10,936 nucleotides of DNA from Candidatus Baldrarchaeum yapensis (lineage in GTDB: Archaea > Asgardarchaeota > Baldrarchaeia > Baldrarchaeales > Baldrarchaeaceae). A program made the translations under genes and the position numbers. Under the pieces are notes generated by a model. That model made no database searches and was not told the DNA's origin. It saw only the letters and a program-made list of their open reading frames with translations. The stretch is from contig JAEOSH010000065.1 in NCBI GenBank assembly GCA_016840465.1, positions 1 through 10,936 of the forward strand, in the 5' to 3' direction. Of this stretch, positions 1-10,936 are shown one piece after another (position 1 is the stretch's first letter; the number at the start of each line of letters is the position of its first letter).

Positions 1-47
1 AGTAGCACTATCGCGATGCAATCGAGGACCACGTACTTCCTCTTCAT
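1..47 (-). CDS. 5' end of a gene running off the left edge (MKRKYVVLDCIAIVLL...), possible signal peptide or membrane anchor
   Basis: ATG at 47-45 overlaps the TGA (46-44) of the upstream membrane protein gene (ATGA coupling). GGAGG lies a few nt upstream. The sequence is basic then hydrophobic and open to the window edge. It is not in the ORF track. Confidence 0.5.
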   Translation of the reverse strand, partial: MKRKYVVLDCIAIVL

Positions 48-427
48 TTTTCAACCCTCCTGACTGCCATTTTTGTAAAATATCCTACACATCCTCCGAG
101 AAAGACGTAAATTGCCGCTAGTATGAGCGATAGCGCTATTATTCCGGTCGCACCGAGGCCTATGATGCTCCCCATGAGTTCCAGTAGGTAGCCGGCGTCA
201 TACGAGTACAGGACATAGGCTATCGCTATCGCGTATGCAGCCAGCGCGCCCACGATCGTAGAAATCGCCATGATAACTGCTGTTTCCGAAATAATTCCTG
301 CTATTACGCCGGCAACGGGCGCCAAGTACCATAAACCAGTGAACTCAAATAATATCGAAAGGACGAATGCCGTGACAAATGGAACAATTTTCCAAGTGGC
401 TTTAGTGATTTTTTCCTGCTGTGCCAA
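44..427 (-). CDS. Small integral membrane protein (about 127 aa, roughly 4 hydrophobic Gly/Ala-rich segments), function unknown
   Basis: ORF 44..436 is almost entirely hydrophobic. The GTG at 436 sits inside an SD-like GGGTGAT, so TTG at 427 is the more likely start. It overlaps the next gene by ATGA. Confidence 0.7.
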   Translation of the reverse strand: MAQQEKITKATWKIVPFVTAFVLSILFEFTGLWYLAPVAGVIAGIISETAVIMAISTIVGALAAYAIAIAYVLYSYDAGYLLELMGSIIGLGATGIIALSLILAAIYVFLGGCVGYFTKMAVRRVEK

Positions 428-467
428 GAAGATCACCCGTCAGGATTCCTCTCCCGTTTAGAGTTCG

Positions 468-506
468 TCATAAAATTTTCCGCTGACTTATTGTATAAAT
501 TTTTTC
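468..506 (-). promoter_or_regulatory. Candidate BRE/TATA promoter(s) for the membrane protein operon
   Basis: On the minus strand, GAAAAAA-TTTATACA (506-492) and GGAAAA-TTTTATGA (481-468) both fit purine-rich BRE plus TATA upstream of the 427 start. Confidence 0.35.
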
Positions 507-606
507 TTGCAATTTTGTGTTCACTGTCGCGGAATTCCTGAGATCAGCGTGTGGGGAAAAAACGGCGGTACGGGATTCACGCATGATGTATTTATAGGTA
601 CGCAGT

Positions 607-636
607 GATTGCAATTGCAACATAATAGTTGCAATC
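607..636. repeat. Palindromic TTGCAA array, candidate transcription factor site
   Basis: GATTGCAATTGCAACATAATAGTTGCAATC contains TTGCAA at 609, 615 and 629, a perfect 12-bp palindrome (609-620) and a perfect 8-bp inverted repeat ATTGCAAC-N6-GTTGCAAT (614-635). It lies just downstream of TTTATA at 591-596. Confidence 0.5.
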
Positions 637-847
637 GTTGAGATGGGGATCCAGTCGTCATTTGGAATAGAAGCCTTAGCCATATTGTAGTCTGATGGTG
701 AGATTTTACCTATGGGGCGCGTTATGGGGGTCTTGGATCAGAGATGTGCTGTCTTATTACAAATTTACCTCCTTAGTGGTGTACTGCATGATTTAATAGG
801 TTCTCGTGGCAAGATATCTAGTGCATGTGAATATGCGGGTGGTGGTT

Positions 848-1702
848 ATGAAGTTTAAGGTTGCGCTCGCGCAGATGAACAGCATTTGTGGAGACGTCGA
901 GAAGAACCTTGCCAAGATGGAGGAATTAGTGGTGAGGGCTTCGAACGAGGGCGCGAAGATGGTTGTGTTCCCAGAGATGTGCCTCTCAGGTTACATGGTC
1001 ATGGACGGGAAGGACTTCCAGACGATTTTCAGGTGCGCAGAGACCGTGGACGGTCCCTCGGTAAAGAGGATGAAGAAATTATCGGAGGATCACGGGATAT
1101 ACATAGTTTTTGGCATGCCCTTGGAGAGCAGCACCGTCAGGGGCGTTATCTTCAACAGCGCGATACTTGTGATGCCCTCGGGAGAGGTAGGAGTTTATAG
1201 GAAGACGCACCTGCCGACCGGCAACTTGGGAGGAACGACGTACTATGAGGGTCTCTACTGCCAGGCGGGGGATAGCTTTCCGGTTTTTGACACGGAGCTG
1301 GGGAGGATAGGCTTGGAGATATGTTATGACTTTGCATTTCCCGAGGTTACGAGGATCCTTGCAATAAAGGGCGCGGATATCGTGATCAACATATCCGCCG
1401 GACCGGAGACCTCAAAGCCGTTCTTCGATGCGATGCTTCCCGTAAGGGCGATGGAGAACGGAATATTCCTCATATACGTGAATGTTGCAGGGGAGCAACG
1501 CGGCTATAGGTTCTTTGGTCACAGCAGGATTTTCGATCCACTTGGAAGAGTCGTCCTCGAGTGCGCGGTCGGCAAGGAGGACTTCAAGGTTGGAACCATA
1601 GATCTTGGGCAGATAAAGATGATGCGGTCGTTGCTCCCCGCGTTTAAGGATAGGAACAGGAGGCCCGAGATCTACGGTGAACTCGCAAAGCAGTACGCAT
1701 AA
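848..1702 (+). CDS. Nitrilase-superfamily carbon-nitrogen hydrolase (284 aa)
   Basis: N-terminal KVALAQM and the Glu-Lys-Cys triad motifs VVFPE, YRKTHL and EICYDFAFPE, plus RAMENG and FFGHSRIFDPLG. The start is moved from 806 to ATG 848, which follows GGGTGGTGG and matches the family N-terminus. Confidence 0.92.
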   Translation: MKFKVALAQMNSICGDVEKNLAKMEELVVRASNEGAKMVVFPEMCLSGYMVMDGKDFQTIFRCAETVDGPSVKRMKKLSEDHGIYIVFGMPLESSTVRGVIFNSAILVMPSGEVGVYRKTHLPTGNLGGTTYYEGLYCQAGDSFPVFDTELGRIGLEICYDFAFPEVTRILAIKGADIVINISAGPETSKPFFDAMLPVRAMENGIFLIYVNVAGEQRGYRFFGHSRIFDPLGRVVLECAVGKEDFKVGTIDLGQIKMMRSLLPAFKDRNRRPEIYGELAKQYA

Positions 1703-1722
1703 TCCTCTTTTTATTTTGAATT
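1703..1722 (+). terminator. Possible T-rich archaeal terminator after the C-N hydrolase
   Basis: TCCTCTTTTATTTTGAATTT directly follows the stop codon, in a 43-bp gap between convergent genes. Confidence 0.35.
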
Positions 1723-1745
1723 TGCGGTGCATTTCCGTCAAAACA

Positions 1746-2897
1746 TCATTCAACTCTTACCGCGCGAGTTCCTATAAAGTTCAGCTTGAACTTCCTTATC
1801 ACCTCGGGAGGGACGATCTCTCCGTCCGGCCTCCTAAAGTAAAGAGCATCGGAGGGACATTGAACGATACACGCTCCACATTTTATACATCGCTCTGCTT
1901 CCACCATGACTGCCACGTTTTTCTCCTCATCCATTCTGTAGCAGTTTCTCGGGCAAACGTTCTCACAGGTACGGCAGCCGATGCACTTTTCTTGATTTAT
2001 TTCGATGGTAAGGAGACGATCCTTGAGAAATTCACTTCTGTAAATAGGGGTAAGACCCATTAGGTCCATGTTTAGTACAAAGGTGAGTATTACTGATATG
2101 GCGGCCCATCTGAGGATCTCAATCCACGACAATTGTCCCGTTAGGAACTCCACGATCGAAACGAGCAGTATGAATATTCCCCACACAAACAGCGAGTAAA
2201 TGAGTGTGTCTAAGAAACGTGGTTGTCCATTTGGCGTTCTTTTCCTTCTGCGGTCAGCCATTCTTGAAAACAGCGGAAATGCCAAGAATGTCAAGAATGA
2301 TAGTGACCAGATTGCGACAAGTGCGGGAATCATTAGTTTTGGGAACACGAAAAACAATATGAGACCTATTATTAACGAAATTGGGAACGCCCATGCGACA
2401 GAGATTTCTAGTCGTTGTCTGAGCGGAAATTTGATCTCTCGCATATTGGGAGTTTTCTTAAGGTTGTTTCTTAGGAACTCGGGGATGTCATGCGCGTAGA
2501 CCGGTCCCCATATCACATTCCATCCCGTCTTTTCCTTTATGACTTTGGCTTCGATTCCCGATGCTGCGAGTTGCGGCAATATTATGTTTCTGTGACCGAC
2601 GAGTTCTTCTATTCCGCTGGTTTTTAGGATGGAGATGACGCTGTGATTTGTAAGATGGCCGCCCGCCGATGCGCACCACACGTTAATGCCCCTACTATTT
2701 GCCACTAGCAGGTAGCAGTCAATTCCTCTGATCGCCTTCTTTACTCTTTCCACGGTCAGCCAGTAATTACAAGTTAAAAGGACGGGTGAGTCTCTCCCGG
2801 GGTTGCCTATCTTGATGACCCCCGTCCTGCACGGGATGGGGATAAACCTCAGTAGGGTGCACAGGACGTTTGCGACGAGATACCTTAAGTTGCTCAT
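1746..2897 (-). CDS. hgcAB: HgcAB-like fusion protein: CdhD/HgcA-type corrinoid-binding domain, about 4 TM helices and a C-terminal 2x[4Fe-4S] ferredoxin (383 aa)
   Basis: HgcA-like motifs in order: GNPGRDSPVLLTCNYWLTVE, cap helix GINVWCASAGG (Cys75, nt 2690-2658), IILPQLAASGI and WGPVYAHDI. A hydrophobic block follows, then CIGCRTCENVCP and CIKCGACIVQCP. The symbol denotes homology, not demonstrated Hg methylation. Confidence 0.88.
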   Translation of the reverse strand: MSNLRYLVANVLCTLLRFIPIPCRTGVIKIGNPGRDSPVLLTCNYWLTVERVKKAIRGIDCYLLVANSRGINVWCASAGGHLTNHSVISILKTSGIEELVGHRNIILPQLAASGIEAKVIKEKTGWNVIWGPVYAHDIPEFLRNNLKKTPNMREIKFPLRQRLEISVAWAFPISLIIGLILFFVFPKLMIPALVAIWSLSFLTFLAFPLFSRMADRRRKRTPNGQPRFLDTLIYSLFVWGIFILLVSIVEFLTGQLSWIEILRWAAISVILTFVLNMDLMGLTPIYRSEFLKDRLLTIEINQEKCIGCRTCENVCPRNCYRMDEEKNVAVMVEAERCIKCGACIVQCPSDALYFRRPDGEIVPPEVIRKFKLNFIGTRAVRVE

Positions 2898-3562
2898 TCG
2901 GTTTCCCTCATCGGCTTTCTTGCAACTACTTCCACGAAGTTTTCCAGCCTGCTGACCCTTATAGACTCTATTATGAAGCCGGCCTTCTCAAGTCTTTCGG
3001 GCAGGTTCTTTATCGGGTGGGAGGTTCTCTGAGCAACCAGATAAGTTATCAGGAGCAGAGGTGCTCTGATTATCCAATTAATAACTCTTTTGAGGCGGTT
3101 TCTCGGCACAACTTCGTCTGCTACGAGGAAGAGACCCCCTGGTTTCAATATTCTCATCACCTCTTTTAGCGTGTAGTCGAGTTCGTGGGTTGTCAATTCT
3201 GATAGCACAAGAACAGCAGTCACCACGTCATAACTTTCTGATTCCTCCTTATCCAGTTCAACGACGCTCATTTCATGCAGTTCTACCCTATCTGAGAGAT
3301 TTTCCTTTTCGATCTTTGCTAGCGCGATCTCGAGCATCTCGGGGTTTACATCGATTCCCTTCACCAGTGCCCCTCTCCGTGCTGCTCTTATCGTCATGTT
3401 CCCGGTTCCGCACCCTATGTCGAGAACGCGTTGTCCGCTCTTGACGTGAGATGCAAGGCTATCGTATACATTCTCCGCCTTTCCGAGAGTAATTATCCGG
3501 ATGCCCCAATCGTATTTCTTCGGGGACGATTCGAAGATTCTCATCAGAACGTATGCGCACAT
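2894..3562 (-). CDS. cpaM: Class I SAM-dependent methyltransferase, UbiE/MenG-like (222 aa); resembles the family I recall as corrinoid protein-associated methyltransferase CpaM
   Basis: Motif I VLDIGCGTG, post-I GIDVNPEML, YDVVTAVLVLSEL and LKPGGLFLVADE. Its TGA overlaps the ATG of the HgcAB-like gene (2897-2894). The start is placed at ATG 3562, about 28 nt below a TATA-like box, rather than 3586. The CpaM name is from memory and needs an HMM check. Confidence 0.85.
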   Translation of the reverse strand: MCAYVLMRIFESSPKKYDWGIRIITLGKAENVYDSLASHVKSGQRVLDIGCGTGNMTIRAARRGALVKGIDVNPEMLEIALAKIEKENLSDRVELHEMSVVELDKEESESYDVVTAVLVLSELTTHELDYTLKEVMRILKPGGLFLVADEVVPRNRLKRVINWIIRAPLLLITYLVAQRTSHPIKNLPERLEKAGFIIESIRVSRLENFVEVVARKPMRETE

Positions 3563-3589
3563 TAAGCGACACCGGAGGTGTAGCATTTG

Positions 3590-3611
3590 AATTTATGTGC
3601 AACAATGTTGC
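3590..3611 (-). promoter_or_regulatory. Candidate TATA box with an adjacent 13-bp palindrome for the methyltransferase-hgcAB operon
   Basis: GCAACA-A-TGTTGC (3599-3611) is a perfect inverted repeat just upstream of ATAAATT (3596-3590, minus). The spacing to ATG 3562 fits a leaderless mRNA, and no SD is visible. Confidence 0.4.
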
Positions 3612-3766
3612 TAGGTGATATCGTTCGAGATTCTAAATTTCTGGAATGTAATTAGTAAGGTTATCTTTAAGGAAGAGAAACTTAATGTATGATTAAAATA
3701 TTGGTCACTATCGATTAAACGAAACTCTAAGCTAGGATTGCCTCTACATTTATTGGATGTGATCAC

Positions 3767-4243
3767 ATGAGAGAAAGCTTACATGCGGTACTAGCCGTTG
3801 CTGAGTGGCTTCTACTGATCCTTTGTATAGTCGTGGGGTTTTTCTTCGGTCTTAGTTTCTTTAATATGTTTCTTTGCATAGCCGGATGGTCCATTTTCAC
3901 AACGGGAATGGCAATTCATTTTCTCAGTCACAAGGAGCACCCTAAGGCGCATAAGAGCATTGAGGAAATAGATTACGTTGCATCGAAGGGAATTTACTCA
4001 TGGGTTAGACATCCAGGGTACTTAGGGCTAATACTTGCATACTTAGGACTCGCCATAGCATTCGGAAGTGTTCTTGCATTAGTGGTCGCGGTTCTCTTCG
4101 CGGTTCATCACTATCGCCTCGCCTGCAGGGAGGAGAAAATGATGCTGGAGAAATTCGGTGAGCGCTATGCAAAGTACATGGAAGAGGTGCCGGATAGATT
4201 TATACCGATAAGAAAACTCCTAAGGAAGTTGAAATACAAGTGA
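3767..4243 (+). CDS. Isoprenylcysteine carboxyl methyltransferase (ICMT/Ste14)/PEMT-family membrane methyltransferase (158 aa)
   Basis: Several TM segments and the family motifs KGIYSWVRHPGYLG and REEKMMLEKFGERYAKYMEEVPDRFIP. An SD-like GTGAT lies 3 nt before the ATG. Confidence 0.88.
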   Translation: MRESLHAVLAVAEWLLLILCIVVGFFFGLSFFNMFLCIAGWSIFTTGMAIHFLSHKEHPKAHKSIEEIDYVASKGIYSWVRHPGYLGLILAYLGLAIAFGSVLALVVAVLFAVHHYRLACREEKMMLEKFGERYAKYMEEVPDRFIPIRKLLRKLKYK

Positions 4244-4381
4244 ACTGAGATTTTTTGGTGGAGAACATCAACCTCGCAAACTCTGAGGATGCGGGATACT
4301 CTAAGAATCCTATAGGCTCATATGTCGAAGACCCCGCGCTCCGTTCTTCAAAAGCAATATGGAAACTCGAACTGGTGATAC

Positions 4382-4427
4382 TATACACCATATAGTTTAT
4401 ACACCATATGGTGTATACACCATATGG
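4382..4427. repeat. Three copies of TATACACCATAT at 16-bp spacing, forming two overlapping perfect palindromes
   Basis: Exact 12-mers start at 4382, 4398 and 4414. The palindromes are TATACACCATATGGTGTATA (4398-4417) and CCATATGGTGTATACACCATATGG (4404-4427). They overlap TTTATA (4396-4401) and run up to the SD of the ATPase gene. Confidence 0.9.
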
Positions 4428-4435
4428 GTGATACC

Positions 4436-5968
4436 ATGTTTGTTAACAGGGAGCAGGAGTTGGAGGTTCTGCGGAGGCTCTTCGATGCGAGGTTGAAAGG
4501 ATCAAGTTTTCATGTTTTGGTTTATGGGCTGAGAAGAGTGGGGAAGACAGCTCTTATTGACGAGTTTCTGCGCGATAAGCGCGGATTTAGGGTGGACTGC
4601 TCGTATGTATCTCATGGGACGGATCTTTTTAGGGCCATGTTCCACGAAATTCTTTCTCTCGAGGGCGAGGGTTTTCCCGTGAGGCCGAATGAGTTGAGAT
4701 CCCCGGCTTTAAGGAAATATTACCCTTACTTTGAGAGGCCCCTTGAGGATTCCCTCGAAATGCTGAGGCAAGCGTTCTTCCTCATTAATGAGTATGCTAG
4801 GGAGGTGGACCACTTAGTAGTGGCACTTGACGAATTCCACGGGCTCGTGGAGAACATTTCCCTGCTCACGCCGGGCGCGCCAGCTGAGGTTCTTAGATCG
4901 AGAGTTCTGTGGATGGTGCGTGACGCCCTACAGAGATCCCCCAATAACGTGTTTTGGATTATGTGCACGAGTGCGGGATTCCTCATGGAGGAATACGGGA
5001 GAGCAGATAGTGCCTTTTTGGAGATGTTTCAAAAACTTGAAGTGGGACCGTTGCCGGAGAGGGCTTCAGCAGAACTTGTAAGGGCAAACTTGTCAAATAT
5101 GGGTGTTAGCTTCTCGGAAGATGCCGTTTTGGAAATTTCAAGGATATCAGGTGGGATTCCTGCAATAATAAACGAGATAACCGCCGCACTTGCAACCGAG
5201 AGGGAGATTTCAGGAACAGTTGTTAGGAAAAGGGTGAGGGAGTTGCTGGAGCGTGGGGAGTTTGATGACTTCTTCGAGGCCTACATTTCCTTCATCGCGG
5301 ATTGGAGCAAATGGAGCAAGCAGACGATCCTTAAGGTTCTGCGGTGCATTGCAGAGGGTAAGACCACACCGAAGGAAATAGCACGGGTGAGCGGTATGAA
5401 ACCATCCACCGTTGCAAACATGCTTGTGGATTTGAAGAAGAAGCACGTGATAACAGAGTCAAAGGAAATAAGGTACCCATTGCTCAGAGAATGGTTGCTG
5501 GCGCGGCCACACCCTCCGTTTGGAATTCCGAGAAGAGAGTTGCTGATGATGCATCTCGGAATTACGTTTGAGTCGTACTGCAGGGAACTCTTCCAGAGAA
5601 TAAAGGAGACGGTTTCCATAGAGGACGAGGACAAGATGTTCTTAGGAACGCGCCAAAGGCTGGAAATCCCACCAGTTGTCGAGGTAAAATCGGGTGAAGA
5701 CGCCGATATATTGGTGATAACCGAGAAAGGGGTACTCGTAATTGAGGTGAAATCCGGGGTCATTTCAAAGAGAGATGTCGAGAAACTCGACGAGAAAGCG
5801 GACAAGTATGGAAACGTGATATCCAAGATAATAATCGCAATGAGAGGTGCACTCCCGAGCGCGATCGCGGAGTGCATCAAGCGGAAAATCACAATCCTCA
5901 CGGCGGATGCAATAAACGCACTTGCGGGTAAGGTGCGCATGCCTAAACTTCCACGCATAAAACCATGA
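4436..5968 (+). CDS. Archaeal (MJ-type) ATPase with winged HTH and C-terminal PD-(D/E)XK nuclease-like domain (510 aa)
   Basis: N-terminal FVNREQEL, Walker A GLRRVGKT and Walker B LVVALDEFH. wHTH TPKEIARVSGMKPSTVANMLVDLKKKHVI. Nuclease-like FESYCREL...DADILVITEKGVLVIEVKSG. The start at ATG 4436 follows SD GGTGA. Confidence 0.85.
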   Translation: MFVNREQELEVLRRLFDARLKGSSFHVLVYGLRRVGKTALIDEFLRDKRGFRVDCSYVSHGTDLFRAMFHEILSLEGEGFPVRPNELRSPALRKYYPYFERPLEDSLEMLRQAFFLINEYAREVDHLVVALDEFHGLVENISLLTPGAPAEVLRSRVLWMVRDALQRSPNNVFWIMCTSAGFLMEEYGRADSAFLEMFQKLEVGPLPERASAELVRANLSNMGVSFSEDAVLEISRISGGIPAIINEITAALATEREISGTVVRKRVRELLERGEFDDFFEAYISFIADWSKWSKQTILKVLRCIAEGKTTPKEIARVSGMKPSTVANMLVDLKKKHVITESKEIRYPLLREWLLARPHPPFGIPRRELLMMHLGITFESYCRELFQRIKETVSIEDEDKMFLGTRQRLEIPPVVEVKSGEDADILVITEKGVLVIEVKSGVISKRDVEKLDEKADKYGNVISKIIIAMRGALPSAIAECIKRKITILTADAINALAGKVRMPKLPRIKP

Positions 5969-6668
5969 GAAGGAGCTGATTGATCCACCAGATTTTCGTC
6001 TAAAATTCCAAAGGTTGAGCAAACACAATTAAGTGGATAAAAATACCACTCGCGAACTCCGTCCAGATATGAACAACTTCTACCCCACTTTTTAGCAGTG
6101 AGTCCGTCACGACCATCACACGAATTTTTGGGTAACTTAGAGACTCGGTCAAATTCGGCACTTCAGCCGCGACTTTGATGGAAAGGTTTCGTTTTCTTCT
6201 TGTACTGCCTTTCGGCTTGCTTCTTTCCGCGGATTCTTTTAATCGCGCGAAGCAGTACGTGTGTTTTGTGTAGGTTTGTGATAATGTGCCCACTGCTCAT
6301 GAGGGCGTGTCAATGGAGGTGATTCAGTTGACGACCTTCTTGAAGGGAGATGTAATACTTTCCACGACAAAGGATTTGGATCCGTATCGGCGAAGGACTT
6401 TCTGGTCGATCGCTATGATGAGTAGAGACCTGCTATCTTTTTCGCGCTCTTCTGGGGCCTTTCTATAACGGGGGTGATTGGGCACACGCGGGTAGTGCGT
6501 TATCGCGAATACTTTCCAGCAGTGAAAGTAGCATGCCGATGTAAGCGTCAAGTGCCGAAATGTTCCTTTTCGTCAGTTAGTTGGCAGTACTATGATGATT
6601 AGCCGGGTCTTCTCTTTCCAATCCTTATCATAGGTAATCATCCACTTGACAATAACTTGGCAAAAGAT

Positions 6669-6707
6669 TGACTTTGACAAGGTCATTAGTATCAAAAACT
6701 TTTAAAT
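6669..6707 (+). promoter_or_regulatory. Candidate pckA promoter: imperfect palindrome, then BRE and TATA
   Basis: TGACTTTGACAAGGTCA (6669-6685; 7 of 8 pairs complementary) is followed by AAAAAC-TTTTAAATT (6694-6708), about 35-40 nt upstream of ATG 6742. Confidence 0.4.
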
Positions 6708-6741
6708 TACCTTGCTGCAAGTCCATGTGGTGCATTACATA

Positions 6742-8250
6742 ATGAGAGAGATGAGAGATTTCATAAATGAAGTTCTAAAGGAAGCAACACTCATAGAAAA
6801 CCCTAAGGAGACCTTTTTAGAGAATGCATCTAAGGGATACGCGGTTCCCAACAAGCTGGGAGTTTTGCTTTTCCACACGAGAGTACGCGCAAGAAGCCCT
6901 CAGAAAACTATAGAGAACGTGAATCTCCTTCCGGAAGAGGAGAAGAAAAAGATAATTGAAGAGTTGGAAAAGGTGAGGGAGTTTCTCCGAGGAAAGAAGT
7001 TGATAGTTGTCGACAGAAATATAGGAAACACTGATAGGTTCCGCATGAGGGCACGCGCGATCATTTCTGCAAAGTACCCTCACCTTGCACTAATGTTTGC
7101 GAGAAACTACTTCCCGCCTAGCGGAGATACGGATATTCCCGAAATAGTCTCGCTGTGCATACCCGAATGGCCCTACGTGAAGGTGATCGTGGATCCCGAG
7201 GAGCTAATAAACATAATCCTAGGCGTCGACTACTACGGAGAGCTGAAGATGAGTTTTCTGAGACTGGCGATGAACTATGCGCGTGACAAGATGGGAATGC
7301 TTGGGTTGCACGCGGGAAGTAAACTCTACATTGTGCGCAACAACAATGGAGAATTTGTAAAGCGTGGAGTGCTGATCTTCGGGCTCAGCGGGACCGGCAA
7401 GTCCACCGTTACGATGGCGAACAATGGACTATCACCGGGAGAGAGAGTAGTGGTCCGACAAGATGATATCGTCATTCTGACCCCTGATGGAATGGCACTT
7501 GGAACGGAGCGAAATCTTTACCCCAAGACCGATAGCATAAACAGCATACCTCCACTTCTTCAGGCAGTAAAACACCCCCTGACGATATTGGAGAATGTTG
7601 CAGTTAAAGACGATGGGACTGTAGACTTCGACGATGTGGACTTCTGTCCAAACGGCAGAGCCATAATAATAAGGCGGGCGATCCCGCTGACTGATGAGAG
7701 GGTTGATCTAGAGAGGGTCGACATTCTCCTATTTCTGACGAGGAGGAAGGAGATGCCCATTGCCGCCAAGACCTGTTCACCGGGACAGGCGGTAGCGTAC
7801 TTCATGTTAGGAGAGTCAATAATGACCTCGGCGGGAACCATGAAGAAAGAGGAGATGGGCAGACCCATCAGGGTGCCCGGATTCGACCCCTTCATGTTGC
7901 AACCCAAGTCCAGGACCGCGAACCTCTTGTATAAGTTCCTGAAGAGGCATACCCACGTCCAGACATGCATTTTAAACACCGGATACGTGGGGGACGTGAA
8001 GGTAACGCCGGAGGACACCATGAAGACCGTCCTCTCAATAGTCAAGGGGACGATAAAATGGAAGTACGACCCGAACCTCAAGATGGAGGTTCCCGCCGAG
8101 ATACCGGGCGTCGACCTGGAGAAGTACGACCCCTACCGCATCTTCGGAGAGGAGAAGTATAAGGAGATAATGGAGAGGCTGAGGGAGGATAGAATAAGAT
8201 ACCTGCGGGAGAACTTTCCAGATCTGGAGTATTTATTCGATCATGTCTAA
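6742..8250 (+). CDS. pckA: Phosphoenolpyruvate carboxykinase (ATP) (about 502 aa)
   Basis: YYGELKMSFL, LGLHAG, kinase-1 FGLSGTGKST, kinase-2 RQDDIVIL, NGRAII, YFMLGES and LNTGYVG are ATP-type PEPCK motifs. The start is ATG 6742 (or 6751) rather than TTG 6712. Confidence 0.9.
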   Translation: MREMRDFINEVLKEATLIENPKETFLENASKGYAVPNKLGVLLFHTRVRARSPQKTIENVNLLPEEEKKKIIEELEKVREFLRGKKLIVVDRNIGNTDRFRMRARAIISAKYPHLALMFARNYFPPSGDTDIPEIVSLCIPEWPYVKVIVDPEELINIILGVDYYGELKMSFLRLAMNYARDKMGMLGLHAGSKLYIVRNNNGEFVKRGVLIFGLSGTGKSTVTMANNGLSPGERVVVRQDDIVILTPDGMALGTERNLYPKTDSINSIPPLLQAVKHPLTILENVAVKDDGTVDFDDVDFCPNGRAIIIRRAIPLTDERVDLERVDILLFLTRRKEMPIAAKTCSPGQAVAYFMLGESIMTSAGTMKKEEMGRPIRVPGFDPFMLQPKSRTANLLYKFLKRHTHVQTCILNTGYVGDVKVTPEDTMKTVLSIVKGTIKWKYDPNLKMEVPAEIPGVDLEKYDPYRIFGEEKYKEIMERLREDRIRYLRENFPDLEYLFDHV

Positions 8251-8297
8251 ATTACCATCCCTCTCTCTTATCAAAACCTGAAGATCATTAAGATAGG

Positions 8298-8774
8298 TTA
8301 GGGAATTGTTCTAACTTTTATCTTCAATTTCTCTCTTTTTGAGAAATACTCGACCACGGAATTTATCGCTTTATCGTTCGAGAGAAAAATTACCGTGTGA
8401 CCCTTCCGTGCGAAATAAATAGCAAGCCCTATTACCGTGTGGTCCGCTTTTACCTTATCTGGTGATATACCCTCTATTTTTGCGATGCGCAGACGCGCTT
8501 CGTCCATCACCTTGGATACTGACCGGAAATCCATCTCCGGAATCCTAATCGTCCCCCTTTCTATAAGCGATATTATTTCGGATACGGATCTTTTGATCTT
8601 ATCCCGTAACTCGGGGAGTTTTATCCGGCTCAGTACCTTTAGTGGTTTATCCACAAGTTCCTCGTATATTCTCCTAGTTATGAACACGGTTTTTCCCTTA
8701 AGCGAGGTTGCCAGCTGCCCCCTCCTCTGAAGGGCTATTATTGCGCTGGAGTTTGCAATTATGACTTCGGGCAT
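8298..8774 (-). CDS. PIN-domain protein, VapC-like toxin of the COG2405/DUF3368 type (158 aa)
   Basis: VIIANSSAIIAL...VFITRRIYEEL...KADHTVIGLA...FLSNDK follows the PIN pattern. It lies 9 nt downstream of a UPF0175-containing gene. Confidence 0.72.
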   Translation of the reverse strand: MPEVIIANSSAIIALQRRGQLATSLKGKTVFITRRIYEELVDKPLKVLSRIKLPELRDKIKRSVSEIISLIERGTIRIPEMDFRSVSKVMDEARLRIAKIEGISPDKVKADHTVIGLAIYFARKGHTVIFLSNDKAINSVVEYFSKREKLKIKVRTIP

Positions 8775-8783
8775 AGGAAATCA

Positions 8784-9251
8784 CTAGATATACCCGTTTT
8801 CCTCAAGGAGCGCATACGCCTCCACGTATGTCACCCCAAGCATTTCAGCCGCGTCATATATGCTTAGCTTTCCTTCCTTAACAAGCGGACCTATTTCGCG
8901 CAACTTCTTTACTATTTCAATTCCCCTTTCCTTAATAATATCGGCCGTCATACGCGTTTTCTCCCGCTCAAGTACGCTCCCTACGACTTCGGGCGATATG
9001 ACTATCCGGAACTCACGAACTCTGTAAAGTGTCGCATTACCAGTTCTAAATTTCTCCACAATACCAGCCCTTTCCATCTCTGTAAGATACTTCCTCACGG
9101 TTGAGATGGGAATCCCCACTTCTTCTGCAAGATCTTCTGCGCTCATAGTCTTACCGCGAAGCACTGCCAAAAGTCTCAGAACACCAACCCGACTGAGTAC
9201 ACGTAATATGAACGCAAGCGTGTCCAAAGAACTTATGTTCATCCCGTTCAT
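8784..9251 (-). CDS. ArsR-like winged-HTH regulator fused to a C-terminal UPF0175 (COG2886)-type antitoxin module (about 155 aa)
   Basis: N-terminal wHTH RLLAVLRGKTMSAEDLAEEVGIPISTVRKYLTEMERAGIVEKFRTGNATLYRV. C-terminal GKLSIYDAAEMLGVTYVEAYALLEENGY resembles the UPF0175 pattern. The start is ATG 9251 or TTG 9257. Confidence 0.78.
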   Translation of the reverse strand: MNGMNISSLDTLAFILRVLSRVGVLRLLAVLRGKTMSAEDLAEEVGIPISTVRKYLTEMERAGIVEKFRTGNATLYRVREFRIVISPEVVGSVLEREKTRMTADIIKERGIEIVKKLREIGPLVKEGKLSIYDAAEMLGVTYVEAYALLEENGYI

Positions 9252-9265
9252 TGACAAATCAGCCC

Positions 9266-9278
9266 CTTATACTTTATA
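9266..9278 (-). promoter_or_regulatory. Candidate TATA box(es) for the antitoxin-PIN operon
   Basis: Tandem TATAAAG-TATAAG on the minus strand, 15-27 nt upstream of ATG 9251. Confidence 0.35.
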
Positions 9279-9444
9279 CGTCATGAGGTGCGACAATGAA
9301 TATAAAATATGAAGTATGTTTTAAAATTCATGTTTCATGTCTTTGATTTAGAGGTTGTCTCTTAAAAATTATGTACATGTACTTTGATCATGAAGTGAAA
9401 TCCTTAGGGAAATGCTATTATTTCCACTATTAGAGGGTTGTAAA

Positions 9445-10629
9445 ATGCGGGTCTCGGTACTTCTGCTCCTGTGCATGCTTGGGTTCTTCGCGATCATGAG
9501 TTCCACGGCTTCCAAATCCCCAACGCTACCTCTCTATGCTAAACATCTTGGTCTGAATCCGTTCGAAATAGGTCTGGTTGCAGCGGCATCCACGATCACG
9601 GGAATCTTCGTAAACTTCTCCGCCGGCTATCTATCCGACATTTATGGGCGTAAGAAACTCCTCCTCGTAAGTGGTTTTGTCTTCATGACGGCACCGTTCC
9701 TCTACCTCTTTGTATTAAACGCTTGGGAATTTACCGCCGTCAGAGTATATCACGGGGTTGCGACAGCTATATTCGTGCCCGTGGCCACAGCGCTCGTGGC
9801 TGATCTTTACACATCTGAGAAGGGGAAGATGATGGGGATCTTCTCCACCGCCAGAACACTAGGGAGGCTGATAGCACCCACCCTTGCGGGCGTATTAATA
9901 TACGCTTACAGCTTTCACTTCACCTTCATAGTATGTGGGCTCCTCGGAACAATGGCATTCGCTCTGGTGATCCTTCTTCCCTCTGGCCATGAAGCACCGA
10001 AAATAAATACATTTAGGGAGAATGTGCCACCGGAAAATGCCAAAGACCCTATTGATAAATACGCTATCGGAATGCTTCTGTCGGTGGGTCTTGTGGAGGC
10101 CTCAACGTACTTCGCCATGCAAGGGGTCGAAACATTCCTCCCTCTCTACAGTAATGAATTTGTGGAAAATCCATGGCTCGTGGGCCTGATATTCACGCTA
10201 CAGCTTTCAATAATAGCGGCATTGAAACCATTGATGGGTGCGCTCTCTGACAGGGTGGGAAGACTGCCAGTTATAGCCTTAGGGGTATCAACATCGGCCC
10301 TCGGGATGGTGGTACTCTCCCTCTCCTCGAGTGTGGTAATGGTAATATTATCAATAGTTATCTTCGCGACGGGGGTCTCCATGAGCACCGCCGCTACGGC
10401 ACCACTTGCGGCGGAAACCTTGGGAAAAGGATCCCATGGAACCGCAATAGGAACTCTTGAGACAATAAAGGACATAGGACAGGCGCTAGGACCGATAATT
10501 GTGGGATTTATCGCTCTCACGACCTCATATGGGTATGCCTTCCTAATCGCCGCCCTTGTAGAAATAATCGCCCTCGCAATAATACTCATAATGTTCAGGA
10601 TCATGCATAATAAAATTCGGCAGATGTGA
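9445..10629 (+). CDS. Major facilitator superfamily transporter, 12-TM DHA1-like (394 aa)
   Basis: MFS motif A in both halves (GYLSDIYGRKKLL, GALSDRVGRLPVI) and a hydrophobic two-domain layout with a central hydrophilic loop. The start at ATG 9445 follows SD GAGGG. Confidence 0.92.
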   Translation: MRVSVLLLLCMLGFFAIMSSTASKSPTLPLYAKHLGLNPFEIGLVAAASTITGIFVNFSAGYLSDIYGRKKLLLVSGFVFMTAPFLYLFVLNAWEFTAVRVYHGVATAIFVPVATALVADLYTSEKGKMMGIFSTARTLGRLIAPTLAGVLIYAYSFHFTFIVCGLLGTMAFALVILLPSGHEAPKINTFRENVPPENAKDPIDKYAIGMLLSVGLVEASTYFAMQGVETFLPLYSNEFVENPWLVGLIFTLQLSIIAALKPLMGALSDRVGRLPVIALGVSTSALGMVVLSLSSSVVMVILSIVIFATGVSMSTAATAPLAAETLGKGSHGTAIGTLETIKDIGQALGPIIVGFIALTTSYGYAFLIAALVEIIALAIILIMFRIMHNKIRQM

Positions 10630-10631
10630 AT

Positions 10632-10707
10632 AGTACTTCTGAAAACTCCCTCTCGAAGAAGGACTGGACGAGAAAATGTCGATTACTTAGAAAGTTTCGG
10701 AAGTACT
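10632..10707. repeat. 76-bp segment bounded by 13-bp inverted repeats and AAT direct repeats
   Basis: AGTACTTCTGAAA (10632-10644) pairs with TTTCGGAAGTACT (10695-10707), 12 of 13 positions. AAT flanks both sides (10629-10631 and 10708-10710). Confidence 0.45.
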
Positions 10708-10786
10708 AATAATGTGAAGACTCTCCCCAGAGAGGACATCAATAACCTCTTGAAGAATAAAAGTCCCACGCGTTGCATCGTCGATC

Positions 10787-10936
10787 TCAAAGTTCCTTGC
10801 CTATGATCAACTCTATTCCGTGCCTTTCGGCTAACTCCTTTATTTCTCTCGACACTCTCCTAGGTGCTGTCAATATTATCAGAAATAGCATCGCCCTTCT
10901 CCCGTATTTCTTCTCCGCAACCCTCGCCTTTCTCAG
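10787..10936 (-). CDS. 3' end of a gene entering from the right edge; resembles the C-terminus of archaeal PD-(D/E)XK nuclease-domain proteins (DUF3782/DUF1626-like)
   Basis: Open frame LRKARVAEKKYGRRAMLFLIILTAPRRVSREIKELAERHGIELIIGKEL*, stop at 10789-10787. The helix, hydrophobic strand and 'ELAERHGIELI' ending are typical of such domains. It is not in the ORF track. Confidence 0.65.
   Translation of the reverse strand: MRKARVAEKKYGRRAMLFLIILTAPRRVSREIKELAERHGIELIIGKEL

Follow-up and report, generated by a model that had tools for sequence, protein, structure and literature searches.

A class I methyltransferase paired with an HgcAB-like corrinoid-ferredoxin fusion in an Asgard archaeon, and a proposed relay of methyl groups through cobalt

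The corrinoid protein HgcA and the ferredoxin HgcB of mercury methylation (Parks 2013; Zheng et al. 2024, PMC11588087) form methyl-Co(III) from S-adenosylmethionine (SAM), with a cysteine thiolate as the lower ligand of the cobalt, require the HgcB ferredoxin to regain Co(I) and, it is proposed, give up the methyl group in carbanion or radical form (PMC11588087). A family in which the two proteins are fused into one chain (NF043039) has been in the literature since 2015 (Podar et al. 2015; Gilmour et al. 2018; Lin et al. 2023) and includes proteins of Pyrococcus furiosus, Methanococcoides methylutens and Kosmotoga pacifica. Methylmercury was not produced by P. furiosus or M. methylutens, which both carry fused hgcAB (PMC4646819, PMC5893877). 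Here we analyse a gene pair of this kind on a 10,936-nucleotide stretch of the Asgard archaeon Candidatus Baldrarchaeum yapensis (assembly GCA_016840465.1, contig JAEOSH010000065.1, positions 1 to 10,936; hereafter the window). The upstream gene encodes a corrinoid protein-associated methyltransferase (CpaM) and the downstream gene an HgcAB-like fusion protein. An earlier note on this DNA had described the pair as an orphan cobalamin methylation module. The word orphan overstates its novelty: both genes fall into curated, named NCBIfam families (NF043040 and NF043039), and the partnership is already encoded in the NCBIfam CpaM name and model. What the note had stated about methylmercury-negative P. 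furiosus and M. methylutens holds, and so does its statement that the methyl group comes from SAM in the case of true HgcAB.

Both open reading frames (ORFs) lie on the minus strand, a point the earlier note had left unstated, and together occupy positions 1746-3586 of the window. The fusion gene (1746-2897) encodes 383 residues comprising a corrinoid domain, four transmembrane helices and a 2x[4Fe-4S] ferredoxin domain. The methyltransferase gene cpaM (2894-3562) encodes 222 residues counted from Met9 of a longer ORF (2894-3586), whose in-frame ATG at 3586, upstream of Met9, would yield 230 residues. Because the homologues all begin at the position of Met9 (alignment A2; consensus MSTYILMKILES, also written MSTYILMKILESAPSRYD), the true start is most likely 3562, in agreement with the end coordinate given by the earlier note. 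The same note had seen the cpaM stop overlap the start of the fusion gene in an ATGA, which we confirm at 2894-2897 (plus-strand bases TCAT). This overlap points to translational coupling of the fusion gene to cpaM, and the layout to a two-gene operon, which is flanked by a divergent gene (3767-4243) and a convergent nitrilase-family gene (806-1702). The divergent intergenic region (3563-3766) is the presumed promoter region of the cassette, and an A/T-rich CATAAATT box about 33 nucleotides upstream of Met9, beside the upstream ATG at 3586, could be one of its promoter elements.

That the upstream gene encodes a class I SAM methyltransferase, as the earlier note had proposed, is confirmed by Pfam (Methyltransf_25, Methyltransf_31 and Methyltransf_11, E 1e-20 to 1e-22) and by NF043040, which matches residues 12-224 on profile positions 2-216 with 286.3 bits (cut-off 180). 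In length, in motifs and in its position directly upstream of a corrinoid protein the window enzyme does not differ notably from that family. SAM motif I (VLDIGCGTG), the acidic residue after strand 2 (GID) and the later motifs are kept across the 29 sequences of alignment A2, with D48, G50, G52, D71, D149 and E150 invariant, and by this conservation the class I SAM-binding site is intact; the sole conserved cysteine is the one within motif I. CpaM does not reach the cut-offs of the ArsM models (50-65 bits against 263-575; NF008823 and relatives) or of the UbiE/MenG quinone methyltransferases (72.9 bits against 158; TIGR01934), the Pfam scan found no radical-SAM domain, and the PDB relatives found by sequence are generic class I methyltransferases only. 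NCBIfam labels NF043040 a "hypothetical equivalog". In the literature we found no paper that names CpaM or mentions a methyltransferase partner of fused HgcAB, and no experimental data for any member of the family. One homologue, in a metagenome-assembled genome of Methanococcoides sp. (L023:4928-5620, plus strand), aligns from residue 66 on, with unrelated sequence replacing the conserved N-terminal segment; this anomaly may reflect a frameshift or a variant start, and M. methylutens (L145) has a normal 216-residue gene.

The fusion protein matches NF043039 (HgcAB-like fusion protein) with 452.5 bits against a cut-off of 285 (residues 9-353 on profile positions 2-350), and it has the architecture of that family in a single chain, from a CdhD-type corrinoid domain with an NVWC cap helix through transmembrane helices to a C-terminal two-cluster ferredoxin. 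Pfam places CdhD at residues 20-141 and Fer4 twice within residues 298-351. The corrinoid-binding domain (2454-2840, residues 20-148) is a homologue of the B12 domain found at the C-terminus of the CFeSP/ACDS gamma subunit, and its cap helix NVWCASAGGH (2652-2684) carries Cys75 (codon 2673-2675), the presumed thiolate ligand of the cobalt. Residues N72, V73, W74 and C75 are invariant in all 20 sequences of alignment A1, and the cap helix varies within the family as NVWC[ASG][AS][TA]GG. The membrane domain (2061-2423, residues 159-279) has hydrophobic helices at residues 159-184, 186-217, 227-253 and 258-279 according to the secondary structure of the AlphaFold model, a model of moderate quality overall (mean pLDDT 65) that reaches about 80-90 in the corrinoid region and is of low confidence at the cap helix. 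Its conserved polar residues R162, E164, WAF 169-171, W264, D278, T283 and P284 are invariant columns of A1. The HgcB-like ferredoxin domain (1839-2012, residues 296-353) holds two CxxCxxCxxxCP motifs, CIGCRTCENVCP and CIKCGACIVQCP at residues 305-348, and is followed by a cysteine-free basic tail. The corrinoid domain, transmembrane helices and paired cluster motifs reported in the earlier note are thus borne out by Pfam, by the sequence and by the AlphaFold model.

The first of the two cluster motifs sets the window copy apart from most of its family. The copy retains the canonical CxxCxxCxxxCP (1941-1988, minus strand, residues 304-319), whereas about 90% of 80 sampled family members have the second cysteine of this motif replaced (C-x-G-A-G-x-C). 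An extra cysteine three residues past the CP (C319, CPRNC) is invariant in the sampled family, and judging from these motifs most members may have a first cluster with other ligands or of the 3Fe kind. Relatives of the fusion protein number in the thousands in the protein database, and those we found are 53-60% identical to it, the nearest at 60%; the named ones come from Asgard archaea, Hydrothermarchaeota, Methanofastidiosia, Thermococcus, M. methylutens, K. pacifica, KSB1 and others. The same architecture, the same invariant residues and the CpaM partner are shared throughout. We are virtually certain that the window pair belongs to the catalogued CpaM/HgcAB-like family, of which it is an ordinary, moderately divergent Asgard copy.

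The fusion protein remains clearly below the models of its better-characterized relatives. It scores 164.5 bits against true HgcA (NF040863, cut-off 275), in a match limited to the N-terminal half, 55.6 bits against HgcB (NF040864, cut-off 99) and 102.1 bits against the ACDS/CFeSP gamma subunit (NF003195, cut-off 306), the last across profile positions 321-449 only. In the profile comparison that the earlier note had suggested, the CpaM and HgcAB-fusion models were thus reached and those of HgcA, HgcB and CFeSP gamma were not. Among solved structures, sequence comparison links the corrinoid domain only to the CFeSP large subunits (AcsC/CdhE of the Wood-Ljungdahl pathway; 2H9A, 4C1N and 4DJD), matched by the A1 profile across residues 19-146. 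Beyond this homologous B12-binding domain the two systems diverge: the window fusion lacks the N-terminal cluster and the TIM-barrel domain of CFeSP, and CFeSP itself is soluble and receives its methyl group from methyl-folate via MeTr rather than from SAM.

With HgcA and HgcB the window protein shares the CdhD-type corrinoid domain, a cap helix with cysteine, a membrane domain, a two-cluster ferredoxin and a likely methyl source in SAM. It differs from them in being one chain, in having four transmembrane helices against the five reported for HgcA, in its cap helix, in its tail and in its obligatory class I methyltransferase partner. The cap helix of true HgcA is defined as N(V/I)WCA(A/G)GK (Capo et al. 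2022, PMC10087281) and reads NVWCAAGK in 26 of 32 true HgcA sequences; the fusion version is one residue longer and lacks the lysine. True HgcB tails carry 3-8 cysteines in 31 sequences, most of them ending in CC, whereas the tails of eight countable fusions, the window included, have none or one (none in the window after the second cluster motif).

To determine how stable the pairing is, we searched for CpaM at 80 loci encoding relatives of the fusion protein, taken from the genomes of species representatives across many bacterial and archaeal phyla. At 78 of the 78 assessable loci the gene directly upstream, on the same strand, encodes a CpaM homologue (45-67% identical); in the remaining two, no more than about 130 bases separate the start of the fusion gene from a contig end. 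The same pair in the same order at all these loci argues that the arrangement is not due to chance, and the possibility raised in the earlier note, that the adjacency would not be conserved in other genomes, is thereby removed. By naive ORF calls a four-nucleotide overlap is the commonest spacing (40 of 74 loci), found also in M. methylutens, whose 216-residue methyltransferase gene overlaps the fused gene by four nucleotides. The divergence of one protein between pairs of loci correlates with that of the other (Mantel r 0.75, a value reached in 0 of 999 permutations), which indicates that the pair has been inherited and transferred as one unit, and with a mean p-distance of 0.41 for both, the two proteins diverge at an equal rate. 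No third gene shares in this conservation. When all ORFs were clustered, no other cluster occurred at more than six of the 80 loci, and among the immediate neighbours the commonest Pfam family was found at 3 of 59 loci upstream and at 5 of 64 downstream (an MMPL exporter). With no other conserved neighbour, the pair must itself supply the donor chemistry, the carrier and the entry of electrons.

Within the window's own phylum the association takes further forms. Among 301 genomes of Asgard archaea, the fusion is found above cut-off in 58 and CpaM in 67, and the two genes stand side by side in every genome for which both coordinates are listed. In keeping with an Asgard origin, relatives of one paralogue taken from this sample carry Thorarchaeota or Promethearchaeota annotations. 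Weaker relatives of both families occur in about 135 of the 301 genomes, and from a reading of 13 places that hold them we defined four architectures. In type A, the arrangement of the window and of L106, CpaM is followed by the HgcA-HgcB fusion. In type B, a single ORF of 596 or 642 residues encodes CpaM, HgcA and HgcB in one protein (L101:1183-2973, minus strand, in which both families are above cut-off, and L102:1480-3408, plus strand). Type C has a CpaM-HgcA fusion of 547-584 residues and, after it, a gene for a small ferredoxin (L097, L098, L100, L103 and L108). Type D has separate genes for a CpaM-like protein, an HgcA-like protein of about 320 residues and an HgcB-like protein of about 75 residues (L099, L104, L105, L107 and L109). 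CpaM-like partners accompany all type C and type D forms that we read, and wherever nature has joined CpaM covalently to the corrinoid protein it is N-terminal. These fusions provide the strongest computational argument in this study that CpaM may act physically on the corrinoid protein. A predicted complex of CpaM (A2) with the corrinoid domain (A1, residues 1-160) scored 0.18 against a mark of 0.32, a value that speaks neither for nor against binding.

The HgcA-like paralogues of types C and D are annotated only as hypothetical proteins and fall below the cut-offs of both the HgcA and the HgcAB-like models. We considered whether they are true HgcA and rejected this, as six of the proteins (three of each type) score 148-203 bits against the cut-off of 275. 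True HgcA above the NF040863 cut-off is found in one of the 301 genomes of the window's phylum, against 75 of 251 in a Desulfobacterota-like phylum. In genome G025 (L110:2787-3515, minus strand), this only true hgcA of the phylum has a generic class I methyltransferase gene (71 bits to the CpaM profile) some 700 bp upstream on the same strand, and the same genome additionally has a regular CpaM/fusion pair elsewhere. Since the fused family and its partner are already catalogued, what may be less familiar are these Asgard-specific types C and D, which lie outside the curated families and have CpaM-like partners throughout, with no such partner at true hgcAB.

We placed the HgcA part of these proteins in a tree obtained by a quick maximum-likelihood search (88 rows, SH-aLRT support only, short outgroup). 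True HgcA forms one clade (support 99), and a cosmopolitan fusion clade (99) includes the window copy as an unresolved basal branch. Three other Asgard copies, of types A and B, are the sister of this cosmopolitan clade (96), so that the window copy stands apart from them; nor does it group with the copy of a relative from the same order. Lateral acquisition of the window copy is possible, and its flat base-composition profile gives no compositional sign of a recent transfer. Two lineages, with the fused forms apart from true HgcA, agree with Lin et al. 2023 (PMC10083202). Types C and D came out scattered in the free search, which, at weak support, drew some forms close to true HgcA, and a tree constraining all CpaM-associated rows together had a likelihood higher by 39.6 log units (AU p 0.87). 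One origin of the CpaM partnership is thus compatible with this test, which does not reject it; multiple origins, an ancestral state or a direction of gain and loss cannot be claimed from it.

Taken as a whole, these observations would be best explained by a self-contained two-gene operon that relays methyl groups from SAM to cobalt and on to an acceptor, a reading to which we attach middling confidence. In such a relay, the C-terminal 2x[4Fe-4S] domain would take up low-potential electrons and reduce the corrinoid of the N-terminal domain to Co(I). CpaM would then bind SAM and load its methyl group to give methyl-Co(III), with Cys75 as the lower ligand and release of S-adenosylhomocysteine; we hold this loading role to be about as likely as not. 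Finally, an electrophilic acceptor bound at or near the conserved four-helix membrane domain would receive the methyl group in the form of a carbanion or radical equivalent. Transfer would leave Co(III) or Co(II) behind, which the ferredoxin domain would re-reduce at each turnover, and the need for two electrons per turnover would explain why a ferredoxin is built in. The MetH reactivation module and the class B radical-SAM methylases (such as TsrM) likewise methylate Co(I)/Co(II) cobalamin with SAM and require a low-potential donor; the likeness is one of proposed working only, as the folds are unrelated and CpaM is a Rossmann class I enzyme that belongs to neither family.

The acceptor is probably something other than Hg(II), because the cysteine-rich tail thought to deliver Hg(II) is absent, the cap helix is altered and the culture tests were negative. 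Sequence identity within the fusion family is 50-60% from bacteria to archaea, so a target shared by the two domains is to be expected, and we infer that a small inorganic or metabolic electrophile fits better than a domain-specific lipid.

Several points weigh against a relay loaded by CpaM. To our knowledge, methylation of a protein-bound corrinoid is not known for any class I Rossmann methyltransferase, and the nearest characterized relatives of CpaM (UbiE/MenG, ArsM and phosphoethanolamine N-methyltransferases) methylate small molecules. True HgcAB uses SAM without CpaM, so that the chemistry does not demand a separate loader. When we searched 32 true hgcA loci, including 1.5 kb of flanking sequence on either side, using a profile built from 82 CpaM sequences, a neighbour of CpaM grade was found at none of them; the search returned two generic methyltransferases with weak scores (71 and 63 bits). 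A further difficulty is where a complete cobamide would come from. The 2.27-Mb, 96%-complete genome encodes CbiB and an ACDS corrinoid subunit, which indicates that the organism handles corrinoids, and CobS was not found in this assembly.

Some of the same facts would also suit an explanation with no relay, in which the two proteins act one after the other on a shared small molecule: the corrinoid/ferredoxin protein would carry out a reductive step, such as the dehalogenation or demethylation of a membrane-associated compound, and CpaM would then methylate the resulting nucleophile with SAM. The resemblance of CpaM to small-molecule methyltransferases (50-73 bits to UbiE/MenG, ArsM and related families, and its PDB relatives), the ability of true HgcAB to use SAM without CpaM, and the dechlorination of CCl4 by HgcAB described in a 2026 preprint (10.64898/2026.04.26.720869) all speak for it. 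The covalent fusions in the same order and the invariable one-to-one partnership, however, better fit a direct hand-off between proteins, and the methyl-Co(III) chemistry of HgcA has its signature in the Cys-on cap helix (PMC11588087), which is invariant here, so that we consider sequential action unlikely. CpaM and the ferredoxin domain might instead serve repair only, reductively methylating oxidized Co(II) as in MetH while another donor and an acceptor are handled by the membrane domain. MetH reactivation does combine SAM with a low-potential electron carrier, and corrinoid methyltransferases in general require an activase, but across the 80 loci the surroundings of the pair show no other conserved methyltransferase module (of the MeTr, MtaA or MtrH type), which would leave the primary cycle without a catalyst; we hold this explanation to be decidedly improbable.

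Homology to HgcA and HgcB, the common NVWC core of the cap helix and the two ferredoxin motifs could also suggest that the protein is a genuine mercury methylase, HgcAB in fused form, which CpaM merely boosts. The same protein scores under both the HgcA and the HgcB cut-offs, has NVWCASAGGH in place of NVWCAAGK and lacks the cysteine-rich HgcB tail; the fused forms make up a clade separate from true HgcA in our tree and in the published one (PMC10083202); and of the two species that yielded no methylmercury, M. methylutens has the same cassette. Moreover, two genomes (G301 and G302) hold a true hgcA and a fusion at separate loci, which argues for different jobs. Mercury methylation by the window pair thus seems very improbable to us. 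Least credible of all is operation in reverse, in which a methyl group would be stripped from a substrate onto the corrinoid and passed into metabolism. Corrinoid proteins of methylotrophic pathways do operate in this way, and the earlier note had allowed for such harvesting; it is unlikely with a SAM-dependent class I enzyme, which would have no plausible role in it, as the formation of SAM from methyl-cobalamin is thermodynamically unfavourable, and no methyl-tetrahydrofolate or coenzyme M methyltransferase is conserved near the pair at the 80 loci.

Returning to the relay from SAM through cobalt, we tentatively propose a broader version of it, which we think possible but short of probable. 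CpaM would be a new type of methyl-loader, a class I Rossmann enzyme acting on protein-bound corrinoid Co(I), and its partnership, free or fused, would mark the whole sister lineage of true HgcA, including the uncurated split and fused forms of Asgard archaea. The passage from SAM to cobalt would invert the polarity of the methyl group, so that an electrophile common to bacteria and archaea and beyond the direct reach of SAM, for example a metalloid, could be methylated. For a widespread family that has been without a function since 2015, SAM, CpaM, Co(I) and an acceptor together make a concrete biochemical hypothesis. There is also a practical side: environmental surveys of mercury methylation routinely pick up fused hgcAB-like genes, which are then set aside by hand, and the obligatory CpaM partner offers a simple genomic marker that separates this sister lineage from true hgcAB loci.

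The genome holds one copy each of the CpaM and fusion families. Its 603-residue open frame for a corrinoid protein of the ACDS/CFeSP type (L002, G000:C56:44835-48203) has two tandem corrinoid-domain matches at residues 356-476 and 480-600, which points to either a duplication of the B12 domain or a fusion of two subunits.

Divergent from cpaM, positions 3767-4243 (plus strand) encode a 158-residue integral-membrane methyltransferase of the PEMT/ICMT family (Pfam PEMT, 6e-12), with weak NCBIfam matches to isoprenylcysteine and methanethiol methyltransferases. We considered it as a part of the module and rejected it, since a relative lies near the pair at only two of the 80 loci, and its place beside cpaM looks coincidental. 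A gene at 4424-5968 (plus strand) encodes a 514-residue protein in which an archaeal ATPase domain (PF01637) is joined to a winged helix and to a C-terminal region of NERD/MmcB-like nuclease type, a putative STAND-like architecture such as regulators or defence proteins have. The roughly 740 bases at 5969-6711, between this ATPase gene and a PEPCK gene, contain short unassigned ORFs only, with no tRNA or Rfam match, and tRNA and Rfam scans of the whole window likewise gave no match. On the minus strand at 8298-9257, a 157-residue helix-turn-helix protein of the TrmB/ArsR type with a weak C-terminal match to UPF0175 is followed by a 158-residue protein without a Pfam match, and the two genes are possibly a toxin-antitoxin-like pair.

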